DNA of 64,000 nt from a bacterium (GTDB lineage: Bacteria > Patescibacteriota > Dojkabacteria > SC72), in assembly GCA_022840695.1 (NCBI GenBank), contig JALHDC010000001.1:2516-66515 (forward strand), given 5' to 3'. Shown here piece after piece: positions 20,647-59,963 of this stretch. Made by a program: the position numbers and the translations under genes. Position 1 is the stretch's first letter. Each line of letters begins with the position of its first letter. Below the pieces are notes generated by a model. The model saw nothing but the letters and a program-made list of their open reading frames with translations. It had not been told where the DNA came from and did no database searches.

Positions 20647-20820
20647 ATATGTAAAGATATCATAGAAAAGGGAAAAGTTAAAGGGTCTGGCACTGGTCTA
20701 TCCCCCAGATATCTTTACCCAGTACAACCTTTTTGCAAAATCAGGAGGTTCTTTGGGATGTTGCAACAACAAAAATATGTACAAAAAGAGAACGATTTCC
20801 TCTTGTACAAAGGTTTTTAT

Positions 20821-20843
20821 GGGGACAGAGGAGGGTCTGACCC
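20821..20843. repeat. 23-nt GC-rich motif GGGGACAGAGGAGGGTCTGACCC (copy 1), palindromic core GGGTCnGACCC
   Basis: Identical except for the central nucleotide to 57652..57674. Both copies sit in GC-rich intergenic DNA and are each preceded 75-145 nt upstream by a degenerate AGGGTCnG...GGTC element. Copy 1 abuts the stop codon of the SpoIID-domain gene. Confidence 0.6.
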
Positions 20844-22714
20844 TACTTCTTCTCTACGTTGAAATACCAATAGTGTGATTGTTGTTGTATACGCATGTGG
20901 CCGGGAGCCATTTGATTGTATATATCCTTAAATTCATTACCGGGAATGCTAATTGTCCCCCGCTCCGTGCCATAAAAATGAACATATGTGGTTTTCCCTT
21001 CGGACAGATCTGTCTTAACAAAAGATATTGATTTTACAGGGTTATACAAAAAACTCTCCAATTCGGAAGATGAATAAGGAGATTTCGTTATGTTGCCATA
21101 ATCTACCCTATATGGACACTTCCCAAAATCACTTGGTAGTAATCTTGATAAATCGGGATTTCCTTTTACTCCTTTACCATATTTTATTAAGTATGCATTT
21201 AAAATATCTATCATTTCTTGTGGAGATAGCCAGGGAGAATGACCGCATGTTATCCCATCAGGCTTATCACCATAGCGATACCAAGATTTATAAAACCATG
21301 TCACTCCAGAAACTTTTTCCCAAGCATCGTAAAACCAGTTACTTCCACCTCCACTCTGTGTATCCCACCCTCCAATACTATCAATCCACCCACCATGCAC
21401 AGCAGCATACTGTGTGATTGCAAGATCTGCCCCACGGAACAAAACCTGACTTCGTGTACTATCAACTGCTTGTTTCCAAGTCCCTGTTTTAACACCTGCC
21501 ACATACTGATGACATGTATCACCTCTTATCGCGGAGGCTCCGTATCCTGTAACTCGCAAAGCAAATGTTCTTGCTGCAATAGCCTGTGCTTTCAATGCTT
21601 CTATATGGAAGTATTCTGGCATTTCCCCAAGACGATATAGATATTCCGTTTCGAAATCGTATGTTGCATAGGTGGGATTTACACAACCATCCTCCACAGG
21701 ATACCCACTTCTGGGACATCTTGAATTTGCACCACAATAGACAACTGTTATAGATCCCATGGTTCCACTACCAAAAGTAGGATTAGAATAGTAAAAATTC
21801 AAAATATCTCTATAACTTTGACCCGCATCAGCTCTAGCTCTAGCACCCCACTGACTCATACCGTTTCTATGTGTATATGCCCCAATAGAAAATACTCCGA
21901 AATAACCTGCTGGCGCCTGAGCTATAGAAGTACCATCCCCAGAGGTTGTATCTCCGCCACTCGATATAAACCCTGAACTTCTTGCAGCTATCAATGCAGC
22001 TTGAAGCTGTGATACCTTTTTTGTCAGATCTGTTATCTCAGAACTCAACCCACTCTTACTAGCTACCTGCTTACTCAACTCTGCCTGTAACCTAACCTTC
22101 TCTGAAGCTAACAACTCATGAGCATCATCCAAACCCTTTCTCTGACTATTCAAATCCTCCATCTGATTATCCAAATCAGCCTTACTCTCTGCTAACGAAC
22201 TAAACTCCCCCCCTATCTTCTCTACCTCTCCCCTTAACATAGATATAGTACTCTGCTTTATGAAAATACTCTCCACCAAACTCTTCCACCCCTCTTTACT
22301 TAAAAAGAAATTAGATACCTTAGACCTACTCTGTATATACAAATCACCAGAAACCTCATCAATTAATACTTTCATTTTCTCCAACTGTCCCTGCTTTTCA
22401 TTAATAGCTAAACTCTTCTCCTCTATCTCCTTCTCTGTTCTTTCAATATTTTCTTCTAACTCTGTAATCTCTTTGTTTATCAAAACAATCTTTTGGGATA
22501 TTGAATAATTACTATTACTTATCTCTTTTATTCTGCTTTCAACACTCTTTAAAACACCCTCCTTCTCTTTTAACTCTTTCTCTGTTTCAGCTATTTTATT
22601 CTCTAAATCCACTATTTCATTAGAATATATTGGGAAGTTGAAAAGAGTGAATGAATACAAAACAAAAAGAAATACGGCAAATATATTTGTGATTATTCGG
22701 GGCACTTTAGACAT
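20843..22714 (-). CDS. SpoIID/LytB-domain protein with N-terminal TM and long coiled coil
   Basis: C-terminal SpoIID signature ALKAQAIAARTFALRVTGYGASAIRGDTCHQYVAG. The N-terminal ~300 aa is a K/E-rich coiled coil after a TM anchor. The 3' third of the gene is markedly GC-richer than the surroundings. Confidence 0.75.
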   Translation of the reverse strand: MSKVPRIITNIFAVFLFVLYSFTLFNFPIYSNEIVDLENKIAETEKELKEKEGVLKSVESRIKEISNSNYSISQKIVLINKEITELEENIERTEKEIEEKSLAINEKQGQLEKMKVLIDEVSGDLYIQSRSKVSNFFLSKEGWKSLVESIFIKQSTISMLRGEVEKIGGEFSSLAESKADLDNQMEDLNSQRKGLDDAHELLASEKVRLQAELSKQVASKSGLSSEITDLTKKVSQLQAALIAARSSGFISSGGDTTSGDGTSIAQAPAGYFGVFSIGAYTHRNGMSQWGARARADAGQSYRDILNFYYSNPTFGSGTMGSITVVYCGANSRCPRSGYPVEDGCVNPTYATYDFETEYLYRLGEMPEYFHIEALKAQAIAARTFALRVTGYGASAIRGDTCHQYVAGVKTGTWKQAVDSTRSQVLFRGADLAITQYAAVHGGWIDSIGGWDTQSGGGSNWFYDAWEKVSGVTWFYKSWYRYGDKPDGITCGHSPWLSPQEMIDILNAYLIKYGKGVKGNPDLSRLLPSDFGKCPYRVDYGNITKSPYSSSELESFLYNPVKSISFVKTDLSEGKTTYVHFYGTERGTISIPGNEFKDIYNQMAPGHMRIQQQSHYWYFNVEKK

Positions 22715-33468: not shown

Positions 33469-33888
33469 TGGTGGAGACGACGGGAATTGAACCCATGTCC
33501 AAAAGCATTGTTTAGCACCATGTACAAACATAGTTAACCTTGTATAGTAAGATATTTCTAGAAAGGTTAACAAAAAGAAATATCCCCTCGATTATGTTTC
33601 TAAGTTAGTTACCCTATCGATCAAATAACCAACCGTACCCTGATAACGACTATCTATAATCCCTCATCAGGGAAAAGGATAATAGACACTAACTAAAATA
33701 TTTAGTTAGACCTTATGCAAAGTTAAATGCATAAGCTGGAGCAGCAAAAGCAGCTCTTAACTTAGCAGTAAACTCATTAGCAAAGGCGACAATCTTATTT
33801 TCTACACTTAAGCTGTGTGTTGAATAACGACTCAACGAACGGTTTGTGATAACTAAACGCAAACTTCTGTCGAAAGCCTTACGTCCCC
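33469..33888 (-). ncRNA. ssrA: tmRNA (ssrA)
   Basis: 5' GGGGACGUAAGGCUUUCGAC (conserved UUCGAC). 3' tRNA-like end GGACAUGGGUUCAAUUCCCGUCGUCUCCACCA with CCA encoded. Acceptor pairing includes G3-U70 (Ala identity). Internal open frame ...AFANEFTAKLRAAFAAPAYAFNFA-UAA is a candidate tag. smpB is present at 17 kb. Confidence 0.8.
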
Positions 33889-57463: not shown

Positions 57464-57651
57464 CTTTTATCTAATTATATTATCTATACCCTCTTCAAAC
57501 CATTATACAGGTTTCGAAGAAGATCTGTTTTGGGAAGGGGAAATCTTTAAGATATGTATATTCTATCACAGAGATCGTTATATGACCAGGGTCGGACGAG
57601 GGTCAGGCCTCCTCCTTCCGTAGGGTTGTGCTACCAAAGCTTTTGGAAAAG

Positions 57652-57674
57652 GGGGACAGAGGAGGGTCAGACCC
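57652..57674. repeat. 23-nt GC-rich motif GGGGACAGAGGAGGGTCAGACCC (copy 2)
   Basis: Matches 20821..20843 except for the central nucleotide; lies in the rnj/valS divergent intergenic region; preceded by CAGGGTCGGACGAGGGTCAGGCC and followed by CCCCAAAGGGG. Confidence 0.6.
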
Positions 57675-57710
57675 CAAAGGGGATTGTGATATAATTGGGA
57701 TTATTGATAT

Positions 57711-59963
57711 ATGAAGGAAGAATTACCAAAATCATACAATTCGGATGTGGAAGTTGAGATATATTCTCTTTGGGAGGGTTCTGGCCTTTCAAATCCAGAT
57801 AATATGGCAAAATATCTTAAAGAAGCTGGATATGATGTTAAAAAACCCTTTACCATAACTCTTCCTCCTCCTAATGCTAATGGGAATCTTCATTTGGGAC
57901 ATGTATGTGGGTATTCTTTTCATGATGTGATGGGTCGATATATGAGAATGACTGGACATCCCACCCTACTTCTTCCTGGAAAAGATCATGCTGGGATACA
58001 AACAGAGAGTGTTTTTACAAAGATTCTGGAAAAGGAAGGAAAAAGTAAAAGTGAAATGGGAAGAGAGGAATTTTTTAGAAGAAGTTATGAATTTTGTACA
58101 GAGAATGCAAAAAATGCAAGAGAACAAGAGAAGAGGATTGGTCTCTCAGCAGATTATAGTAGAGAGTTTTTCACTTTAGATCCTAGATTGACGAAAATTG
58201 TTTATGAAACATTTTATAAAATGTTTGAAGAAGGGTTGGTATATAGGGATAAAAGGATAATTAATCAATGTCCGAATTGCCATACTGCATTGGCAGATGT
58301 TGATACTGAGCATGAAGAAAGAAGGGGAATATTCGCATATATTAAATATCCAATTGTTGGGAAAGATAAAGAATATATTACTGTTGCAACCACTAGACCG
58401 GAAACTATGCTTGGAGATACTGCAGTTGCAGTTAATCCAAACGATGAGAGGTATAAGGATTTGGTTGGGAAAAAGGTAATATTGCCAATAGCTAATAGAG
58501 AAATTCCAGTAATAGCAGATGAAAGTATTGATATGGAGTTAGGGACAGGGGCTCTTAAGGTAACACCAGCTCATTCTCCAATAGATTTCGAGTTAGGTAA
58601 AAGGTATGGTCTTGAGGTTCGTAATGTTATTAATGAAAATGCCAAGATGGAGGGAGATATTCCTGAACGATTTAAAGGTATGGGTACAATAGAATGTTCC
58701 AAAGCCTTATGCGAAGAATTAGAAAAAGAAGGATTATTGGAAAAAATAGAGAATATTAAGCATGATGTCATGATTTGTGAGAGGTGTAAAACTCTTATAG
58801 AGCCAATAATTTCTAATCAATGGTATTTAGATGTAAAACCTCTTGCTGATAAAGCTTTGGAAGAGATAAGGAAGGGCAATATTAAGGTTATTCCAATTGG
58901 ACAACAGAAAGCTTTAGAACATTTTTATGAAAATATTGAACCTTGGTGTATATCTAGACAATTATGGTGGGGCCAAAGAATTCCTGTTTGGTACAGTGGA
59001 GGAAAGAAATTATATGATTGGTTACAGGAAAATGAAGGAAAAGGTGTGGATGATTATGAAAATGAGACTGGAGAAGAAGCTACAGGTACAGGAAAGATTC
59101 ATTTAGGAGAGGAACAACCAAATGTAGAGAATAATGAAATATGGGAACAGGATGAGGATGTTTTTGATACATGGTTTAGTTCGGGACAGTGGCCTTTCTC
59201 AACCTTAGGTGGGCCAGAGGGAGAGGATTTTAAAAAATACTACCCTACTCAAGTAATGACTCATGCTAGAGACATTCTTTTCTGGTGGTCAGCAAGAATG
59301 ATAATGATGGGAATATATAAAACTGGAGAAGTTCCGTATAACACGGTATTTCTTACCGGTATGATCTTGGCTGCAGATGGCTCTAAGATGTCAAAGAGCA
59401 AAGGGAATGGTGTTGAGCCAAAGGAAATCTTTGAAAAGTATGGAGCAGATTCTTTAAGAATGTGGTATTACTCGGATGCTCTACCCGGATCTAATGCACC
59501 ATTGAGGGAGGAAAAGATAAAGGGGAATAGAAATTTTGTTAATAAAATATGGAATGCCAGTAGATTTATAGTAATGAATATAGATGATAAAGAAATGGGG
59601 GAAATTTCAAATTTTAAGATTACCGAAAGTGAAAGAATTAACATAACAAAAGATCATATAGGTAAGGTGAGTAGGTATATGGAGAAGTATCAATTTAACT
59701 TAGGGGCGGAGGCCATTAGGGAGTTCTTCTGGCATCAGTTATGTGATGTATGGATAGAGGAAATAAAGAATGATATTAAGGATGAAGGGATAGGTAGTGA
59801 AAAGAGAATAAAATCGTTATCAGAATTGTTGTATATATTGAAAGAAAATCTAAAGATAATGCATCCATTTGTACCTTTTGTTACCGAAGCTGTATGGCAA
59901 GAGCTAGTAAAGTTAGGTTTGGCTGATGGTATATTAATGTCTCAGCAAATGATGTCCCATTAG
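57711..59963 (+). CDS. valS: Valyl-tRNA synthetase (compact, without C-terminal coiled coil)
   Basis: HIGH region PPPNANGNLHLGH, KMSKS (SKMSKSKGN), and the ValRS-type block DVFDTWFSSGQWPFSTLGGPE...DILFWWSARMIMMG; 750 aa. Confidence 0.9.
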   Translation: MKEELPKSYNSDVEVEIYSLWEGSGLSNPDNMAKYLKEAGYDVKKPFTITLPPPNANGNLHLGHVCGYSFHDVMGRYMRMTGHPTLLLPGKDHAGIQTESVFTKILEKEGKSKSEMGREEFFRRSYEFCTENAKNAREQEKRIGLSADYSREFFTLDPRLTKIVYETFYKMFEEGLVYRDKRIINQCPNCHTALADVDTEHEERRGIFAYIKYPIVGKDKEYITVATTRPETMLGDTAVAVNPNDERYKDLVGKKVILPIANREIPVIADESIDMELGTGALKVTPAHSPIDFELGKRYGLEVRNVINENAKMEGDIPERFKGMGTIECSKALCEELEKEGLLEKIENIKHDVMICERCKTLIEPIISNQWYLDVKPLADKALEEIRKGNIKVIPIGQQKALEHFYENIEPWCISRQLWWGQRIPVWYSGGKKLYDWLQENEGKGVDDYENETGEEATGTGKIHLGEEQPNVENNEIWEQDEDVFDTWFSSGQWPFSTLGGPEGEDFKKYYPTQVMTHARDILFWWSARMIMMGIYKTGEVPYNTVFLTGMILAADGSKMSKSKGNGVEPKEIFEKYGADSLRMWYYSDALPGSNAPLREEKIKGNRNFVNKIWNASRFIVMNIDDKEMGEISNFKITESERINITKDHIGKVSRYMEKYQFNLGAEAIREFFWHQLCDVWIEEIKNDIKDEGIGSEKRIKSLSELLYILKENLKIMHPFVPFVTEAVWQELVKLGLADGILMSQQMMSH

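Follow-up and report, generated by a model that had tools for sequence, protein, structure and literature searches.

Two GC-rich islands in a 64-kb stretch of Dojkabacteria DNA, hereafter the window, are very probably REP sequences of a REP/RAYT system that belongs to this branch of the Patescibacteria (CPR). This identification is made because in relatives the box that defines the islands flanks a RAYT gene in inverted orientation, because elements bounded by the box recur at unrelated, non-homologous loci, and because one such element is present in some genomes and absent from others at an orthologous site. A sequence-only reading of the window had offered a REP-like element as one of its guesses, and that guess is now strongly supported. 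REP (repetitive extragenic palindromic) sequences are short repeats that RAYT, a domesticated transposase, spreads through a genome. As far as the sequences can tell, the first island (copy 1, at the SpoIID/bPH junction) would be a non-autonomous REPIN-like unit of ~160 bp, and the second (copy 2, between rnj and valS) a shorter direct doublet. A tblastn search finds no RAYT gene within the 64-kb window, so that the link to the enzyme rests on relatives.

The box and its two doublets in the window

On the plus strand, the 23-mer GGGGACAGAGGAGGGTC[T/A]GACCC occurs at 20821-20843 and 57652-57674. No further match with up to three mismatches is found elsewhere in the 64-kb window, and 100 dinucleotide-preserving shuffles yield none at all, which bears out the earlier claim that the motif is present at both sites and unlikely to be there by chance. 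The 5-1-5 palindrome at its core, GGGTCnGACCC, has exact copies at these two sites only, again as first described. The box itself is a 22-mer made of two 11-mer units, GGGACAGAGGA followed by GGGTCWGACCC, the latter being the outer, palindromic unit; a generalised form is GGGWCWGAnnn + GGGTCWGACCC. GC content reaches 68% in the box, 43% across 20682-20844 and 60% across 57589-57674, in a window that is, as had been stated, about 33% GC overall. Both copies of the box in the window are extragenic. The ends read (A/T)AGGGTC and lack the GTAG head known from enterobacterial and pseudomonad REPs; in the window, GTAG occurs at copy 1 alone, where it derives from the stop codon of the host gene. A GTAG-type head is a feature of particular RAYT groups, not of all. 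Taken singly, the box folds weakly as GGG.CAGA/TCTG.CCC (-4.5 kcal/mol, z = -1.6). A predicted terminator hairpin within the box, with a 5-bp stem and a 3-nt loop, is not credible.

Upstream of the main box, each island carries a second, degenerate one (Table 1). These are the looser upstream elements of the sequence-only reading; they are real and prove to be degenerate copies of the 22-mer, but the spacing of 75-145 nt assigned to them does not hold, the start-to-start distances being 139 nt in copy 1 and 64 nt in copy 2. The complementary heptamers CCTCCTC (57609-57615) and CCTCTTG (20799-20805) are present as claimed. When the two islands are aligned directly, their likeness is limited to the boxes. 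Pfam agrees with the naming of the flanking genes, which match SpoIID, bPH_2, RNase J and class I tRNA synthetase, the last being the gene called valS.

Table 1. Assigned features, with positions in the window, and the SpoIID/bPH spacers of four other Dojkabacteria genomes, with positions in the locus named
Feature	Positions	Strand	Remarks
Copy 1, REPIN-like inverted REP doublet	20682-20844	.	Boundaries from BLAST and alignment
Copy 1 left REP box, degenerate, GGGTCTGGCACTGGTCTATCCC	20683-20704	-	Reverse complement GGGATAGACCAGTGCCAGACCC
Copy 1 right REP box, GGGACAGAGGAGGGTCTGACCC	20822-20843	+	23-mer of the sequence-only reading without its first G
Terminator-like hairpin in copy 1 spacer	20768-20809	-	Sense strand of both flanking genes
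Copy 2, short direct REP doublet	57589-57674	+	17/22 direct versus 13/22 inverted
Copy 2 left REP box, degenerate, GGGTCGGACGAGGGTCAGGCCT	57589-57610	+	
Copy 2 right REP box, GGGACAGAGGAGGGTCAGACCC	57653-57674	+	
Extended -10 promoter-like sequence of valS, TGATATAAT	57687-57695	+	Read from sequence; conserved in L017 and L002
SpoIID/bPH spacer, L075	2454-2500		47 nt; single 11-mer GGGCCAGACCC
SpoIID/bPH spacer, L076			40 nt; no box
SpoIID/bPH spacer, L077			29 nt; no box
SpoIID/bPH spacer, L078	2382-2500		119 nt; 36-nt mini-doublet GGGTCAGGCC-N14-GGGTCTAACCCC

Copy 1 consists of two inverted REP boxes around a spacer of ~117 nt, giving a whole unit of ~160 bp with the terminal units A-GGGTCTGrCmC ... 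GGGTCTGACCC-T. Its left box matches the right one at 16 of 22 positions when inverted and at 13 of 22 when read directly, and departs from the consensus at three positions on the minus strand; its right box is the same 22-mer that flanks the RAYT gene in the contigs L026 and L043. Because its boxes are inverted, copy 1 appears to fit the definition of a REPIN. Both neighbouring genes lie on the minus strand, a SpoIID-domain gene (stop codon 20843-20845) and a gene for a bPH_2-domain membrane protein (ATG 20646). Contact between the island and the SpoIID stop codon had been noticed, as mere abutting; the stop codon in fact overlaps the last base of the box. The spacer, which is conserved as well as the boxes are, contains a hairpin with a 12-bp stem and an 8-nt loop, followed by the U-run TATTTTTGTT. 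Two G-U pairs in the stem become A-C mismatches if it is read on the plus strand, and the hairpin sequence is kept in L022, L046, L059 and L049, three of which have a single mismatch in the stem. We infer from these features a putative terminator. Separately, a TATGAT lies 12 nt before the ATG of the bPH gene (20664-20659, minus strand), similar to the promoter-like element of valS.

Copy 2 sits between the divergent genes rnj (ATG 57463, minus strand) and valS (ATG 57711, plus strand). The gap from its right box to the valS start, given before as ~40 nt, measures 36 nt. Copy 2 is classed as a direct REP doublet because the orientation match favours the direct reading. The putative extended -10 sequence TGATATAAT lies 15 nt upstream of the valS ATG, in host sequence outside the element, and its position places the right box over the -35 region of valS. 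A scan for two-hexamer promoters does not return TGATATAAT because it has no -35 match; the same kind of scan returns no promoter that uses the box, and the box as a -35 element is rejected. There is no Shine-Dalgarno sequence between the extended -10 and the ATG (57687-57713), which suggests that the valS mRNA may be leaderless or nearly so.

The RAYT gene of related Dojkabacteria

In two low-GC contigs, L026 and L043, a gene for a protein of 143 aa is flanked equidistantly by GGGTCTGACCCCAGTCTGTCCC and GGGACAGAGGAGGGTCAGACCC, which are inverted copies of each other matching at 19 of 22 positions. The sample that yielded L026 is also the source of L017 and L022 (contig Ga0255347_1000181, 87% identical to the window). 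The protein matches Pfam Y1_Tnp (PF01797) with 40.5 bits against a cut-off of 23, and the NCBIfam equivalog 'REP-associated tyrosine transposase' (REP_Tyr_transpos) with E = 5e-22 and 78.3 bits against a curated cut-off of 80; NCBIfam models for IS200/IS605 give no match at E <= 0.01. An HUH motif (HFH) and a Y..NP tyrosine motif are invariant or nearly so among 24 homologues, with H59 and H61 invariant and Y120, N124 and P125 conserved in at least 90%. Searched against the PDB, a profile of the family reaches E. coli TnpA_REP (4ER8) at E = 7e-10 and the TnpA of ISDra2, an IS200/IS605 element, at E = 0.3. The family profile was required for this, as phmmer with a single RAYT missed TnpA_REP. 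The homologues are 53-94% identical and form a clade, some members of which are named as Dojkabacteria in NCBI records, and the JGI annotation of some already reads 'REP element-mobilizing transposase RayT'. Together these features point to an HUH/tyrosine transposase of the REP-associated (RAYT) type, putatively single-copy and at a fixed locus between rny and tgt.

The order rny-RAYT-tgt is found at every place returned, for four proteins that are 56-80% identical to the RAYT of L026. The RAYTs of L026 and L043 are ~90% identical to each other, and both have tgt as a neighbour. Inverted box doublets flank the gene in L026, L043, L063, L064, L065, L067, L068 and L069. In L026 and L063 the two boxes match at 19-22 of 22 positions when inverted and lie 506 nt apart, the match in L063 being perfect. 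Across the six further Dojkabacteria loci, whose RAYTs have 56-80% identity to that of L026, the box varies together with the RAYT; for instance, it has drifted to GGTCTGTCCTAGATCTGACCC in L067 and L068. One flanked gene, constant in position and accompanied by a box that co-varies with it, is the signature described for RAYTs in the REPIN/RAYT literature (PMC3116915; bioRxiv 10.1101/2021.07.10.451892), and the assignment to a REP/RAYT system is made because the present genes show it.

By analogy with the systems of E. coli and Pseudomonas, the RAYT would recognise the box in its folded, single-stranded form (PMC3116915; bioRxiv 10.1101/2021.07.10.451892), would cut beside it, and would occasionally copy or excise a doublet without duplicating the target. 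Such rare copying and excision would leave scattered, near-identical copies together with filled and unfilled sites.

The convergent tgt gene shares its 3' end with the REP box that follows the RAYT in L026 (3174-3198), L063 (3439-3467) and L065 (3456-3478); it is the REP that supplies the final ~8 codons of Tgt (KGLTPVCP in L026).

RAYT genes flanked by tandem arrays of GGGWCWGACCC, with two to six units at an 11-bp period, also occur on high-GC (52-74%) contigs from soil and sediment, at L034 (100-900), L036 (1300-2084), L061 (480-1426) and ~40 other loci. The sole named relative of the L034/L036 family is a Gaiellaceae protein with 62% identity, and the L034/L036, L061 and Dojkabacteria lineages are 28-31% identical to one another. 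Closer RAYTs from CPR genomes (L070, L071 and L072, with 43%, 34% and 31% identity to the Dojkabacteria protein) have unrelated boxes. The apparent sharing of the GGGWCWGACCC code with RAYTs that are ~30% identical and belong to Actinomycetota-like soil bacteria is an unexplained oddity. If true, the shared 11-mer code would imply that a REP code has either been kept since very ancient times or been exchanged between CPR cells and their hosts.

Dispersal of the elements, and filled and empty sites

A 21-mer scan of one genome per species returned two CPR assemblies. In one (L001), a Dojkabacteria MAG, the region between rplT and pheS holds two boxes at a distance of 170 nt; the other (L002), labelled Saccharibacteria, shows synteny with copy 2. 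Scanning metagenomes with GGGACAGASSMRGGTCNGACCC gave 60 loci, ~14 of them low-GC and ~45 at 52-74% GC; a scan of viral contigs for the box gave no matches. Contig Ga0255347_1000181 has both islands (L017 and L022) and 82-88% identity to the window; contigs of the L002 type are ~76% identical to it.

Over 161-164 nt, elements of the copy-1 type in L022, L046, L059, L049 and L055 share 84-87% identity with 20682-20844, and the likeness stops exactly at A-GGGTC...GACCC-T. Counting all copies, this type occupies four unrelated loci, three besides SpoIID/bPH. It is found at the syntenic SpoIID/bPH junction in L022, between tRNA genes and enolase in L046, L049 and L055, directly 3' of a gene for a 484-aa protein in L059 and, in a diverged form, between rplT and pheS in L001, L005 and L020. 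The copy-2 type is likewise conserved in relatives, at the syntenic rnj/valS position in L017, L002, L032 and L051, and it recurs at a different, unrelated site in L019. As to the orientation of the paired boxes, the RAYT flanks and the long element fit an inverted arrangement at 15-22 of 22 positions and a direct one at 11-16. For copy 1 and its relatives the figures are 15-18 inverted and 11-15 direct; for copy 2 and its relatives they are 16-18 direct and 11-13 inverted, all read in the knowledge that the near-palindromic units blur orientation.

The SpoIID/bPH junction provides the comparison of filled and empty sites. The spacer there measures 196 nt in the window, the 160-bp element is present in the window and in L022, and it is absent from the junction in four other Dojkabacteria genomes (L075-L078; Table 1). 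This pattern reads as gain or loss at a fixed site. No target-site duplication is seen in the flanks of copy-1-type elements or at the SpoIID/bPH junction. The solitary 11-mer of L075 could be the original target or a deletion scar left between the palindromic terminal units; taken together, that 11-mer and the mini-doublet of L078 may be either products of decay and deletion or target-like sequences.

The elements lie outside genes, next to stop codons, with the exception of one doublet that lies in frame within tsaD, and their orientation relative to neighbouring genes goes both ways and is inconsistent. Their density appears low: the 64-kb window has two doublets, and related contigs have a handful of exact boxes each. 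In the tsaD case, ~90 bp between two REP boxes lie in frame inside the gene (L049 7940-8030, equivalent to L055 10512-10600). The product is 367 aa long in L049 compared with 336 aa in L046, with a 23-aa insertion at the REP doublet, and GSDPGLSL, encoded by the first box, stands in place of the orthologue's GTDPDVDL. Another difference between these contigs concerns the distance from tRNA-Leu to the enolase-side REPIN, which is 59 bp in L046 (12131-12188) and ~1 kb longer in L049 (4617-5594); the extra DNA holds a minus-strand ORF of 351 aa, which extends into the REPIN element.

Alternative readings and relation to known systems

The elements may affect local expression, through the hairpin and terminator-like stem at the SpoIID stop codon and through the box over the -35 region of valS. 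E. coli REPs near termination codons can stall ribosomes, according to work cited in the RepRanger paper. We treat such effects as side effects, since other copies have no consistent orientation to their neighbours. A bolder proposal, which we regard as unlikely, is that the Dojkabacteria REP/RAYT system is no passive junk but long-lived and retained by its host, with boxes built into expression signals, a selected ~160-bp 'cargo' spacer and an 11-mer code shared with distant RAYTs.

The boxes might instead be operator or promoter-proximal sites for a dimeric or tandem-binding protein, perhaps the RAYT, conserved for regulation and not for mobility. We consider this unlikely; valS, the bPH-domain gene and other genes would then be the targets of such a protein. 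The outer unit is indeed a perfect 5-1-5 palindrome, and the 11-bp period of the units is about one helical turn. In copy 2 the right box ends 15 nt before TGATATAAT and is identical at all 22 positions in L017, L002 and L019, with coding DNA in L002 at ~76% identity to the window; at pheS (L001) and at the bPH gene (minus strand), too, a -10-like hexamer follows a box at 15-18 nt. The enolase copy, however, is 37 nt, not 15 nt, from its -10-like hexamer, some elements have no correctly oriented gene downstream, and the doublet within tsaD lies inside a reading frame. The bPH promoter-like sequence, moreover, persists in relatives without the 160-bp element (four on one count, L075 and L076 on another). 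No candidate regulator was found, and the association with a flanked RAYT accounts for the same data without one. An operator or promoter role may exist as an added, secondary function, although the data can be explained without it.

Far less probable is a family of small structured RNAs, such as an sRNA, a riboswitch-like leader or a long terminator, which was another guess of the sequence-only reading. GC-rich islands within AT-rich genomes are often RNAs, a long stem can join the ends of copy 1 on both strands (z = -1.6 on the plus strand and -2.8 on the minus strand), and the spacer has its terminator-like hairpin with strand-specific G-U pairs. Copy 2, in turn, folds no better than shuffled sequence (z = -0.03 and -0.8). 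Among the RNA and DNA folds computed for both islands and for single boxes, copy 1 on the minus strand alone exceeds a modest or zero gain in stability. Rfam 15, run over the whole window at gathering score, returns tRNAs and a tmRNA elsewhere and none at the islands, and at E <= 10 the best matches within both islands reach 11-16 bits against cut-offs of 39-80. None of these is credible. An RNA family is unlikely because of this lack of an Rfam match, because the differences among copies in the arms are not compensatory, because copies occur in both orientations relative to their neighbours, and because one copy is an in-frame insertion within a protein gene. Boxes of the same family also flank a transposase gene, 506 nt apart.

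The tmRNA gene of the window (33469-33888, minus strand; 102 bits in Rfam) departs from the family consensus in its larger size and greater divergence: a long insertion follows the tag-coding part, and the pseudoknot helices match weakly.

An origin as MITEs of a DDE insertion sequence, or as ends of an active IS200/IS605 element (PATE), is equally hard to credit: copy 1 does have terminal inverted repeats of ~23 bp and, at ~160 bp, a typical MITE size, and the associated protein falls within the Y1_Tnp superfamily common to IS200, but these readings are contradicted because there is no target-site duplication, because the gene stays fixed between rny and tgt down to 56% identity, because the ends are identical inverted repeats, which those of IS200/IS605 are not, and because both the family profile and NCBIfam favour TnpA_REP over IS200/IS605 TnpA; the sole gene found with these ends, moreover, encodes a Y1 HUH enzyme and not a DDE transposase.

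As REP/RAYT elements, the islands most resemble the REPIN-RAYT systems of Pseudomonas fluorescens and other Gammaproteobacteria described by Bertels and Rainey. Both have short, GC-rich, extragenic repeats that occur mostly as doublets, with an inverted doublet apparently able to form a long hairpin (here copy 1). Both have a RAYT, in Dojkabacteria putatively single-copy, that is flanked by its own repeat and holds a constant position in related genomes, a box that changes with the RAYT lineage, and presence or absence at orthologous sites without target duplication. The Dojkabacteria system differs in that its host is an ultra-small CPR genome and in that its copies, judged from the 64-kb window and related contigs, apparently number tens at most and not hundreds. 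Copy 1, at ~160 bp, has a long conserved spacer with a terminator-like hairpin, unlike typical REPIN spacers; copy 2 is a direct doublet; and the box is made of tandem 11-mers and not of one ~14-bp palindrome. REPINs occur in about 10% of bacteria, and classical REPINs typically number in the hundreds (PMC3116915; bioRxiv 10.1101/2021.07.10.451892).

The REP/BIME elements and TnpA_REP of E. coli are similar in being extragenic, often right after stop codons, and in the match of the RAYT profile to 4ER8, but the Dojkabacteria box has no GTAG head and an unrelated sequence, and the RAYT has 143 aa where E. coli TnpA_REP has 165. With IS200/IS605 and PATEs the system has in common the HUH/Y1 superfamily (PF01797) and hairpin-dependent transposition without target duplication; it differs in its fixed gene locus and in ends that are inverted repeats of one box and not distinct left and right hairpins. 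MITEs such as the Correia elements of Neisseria are also small, non-coding intergenic units with terminal inverted repeats that may carry promoter or terminator signals. Here, in contrast, there is no target duplication, no DDE parent was found, and the ends are those that flank a Y1 enzyme.

The elements are thus probably of a known kind, REP/RAYT with REPIN-like units, and what is new in the searchable literature is their occurrence in Dojkabacteria (CPR). To our knowledge, research on REP/RAYT systems has been confined almost wholly to Proteobacteria. A literature search that combined RAYT or REPIN with Patescibacteria or CPR found no relevant paper in the searchable literature, neither Patescibacteria nor CPR is mentioned in the RepRanger paper, and a search for the 11-mers returned primer coincidences only. 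The exact sequences given here, for example the box GGGGACAGAGGAGGGTCTGACCCT, are supplied for a biochemical test of a CPR RAYT. A REP family would also explain the recurrent GC-rich islands of these genomes, so that annotators can avoid labelling them as RNA genes or operators. With a RAYT at one locus across Dojkabacteria, boxes that co-vary with it and mobile doublets, such a system appears to persist in a CPR genome streamlined to about one megabase. Because such genomes hold little dispensable DNA, its persistence bears on the argument that REP elements are long-term residents, tolerated or used by their hosts.
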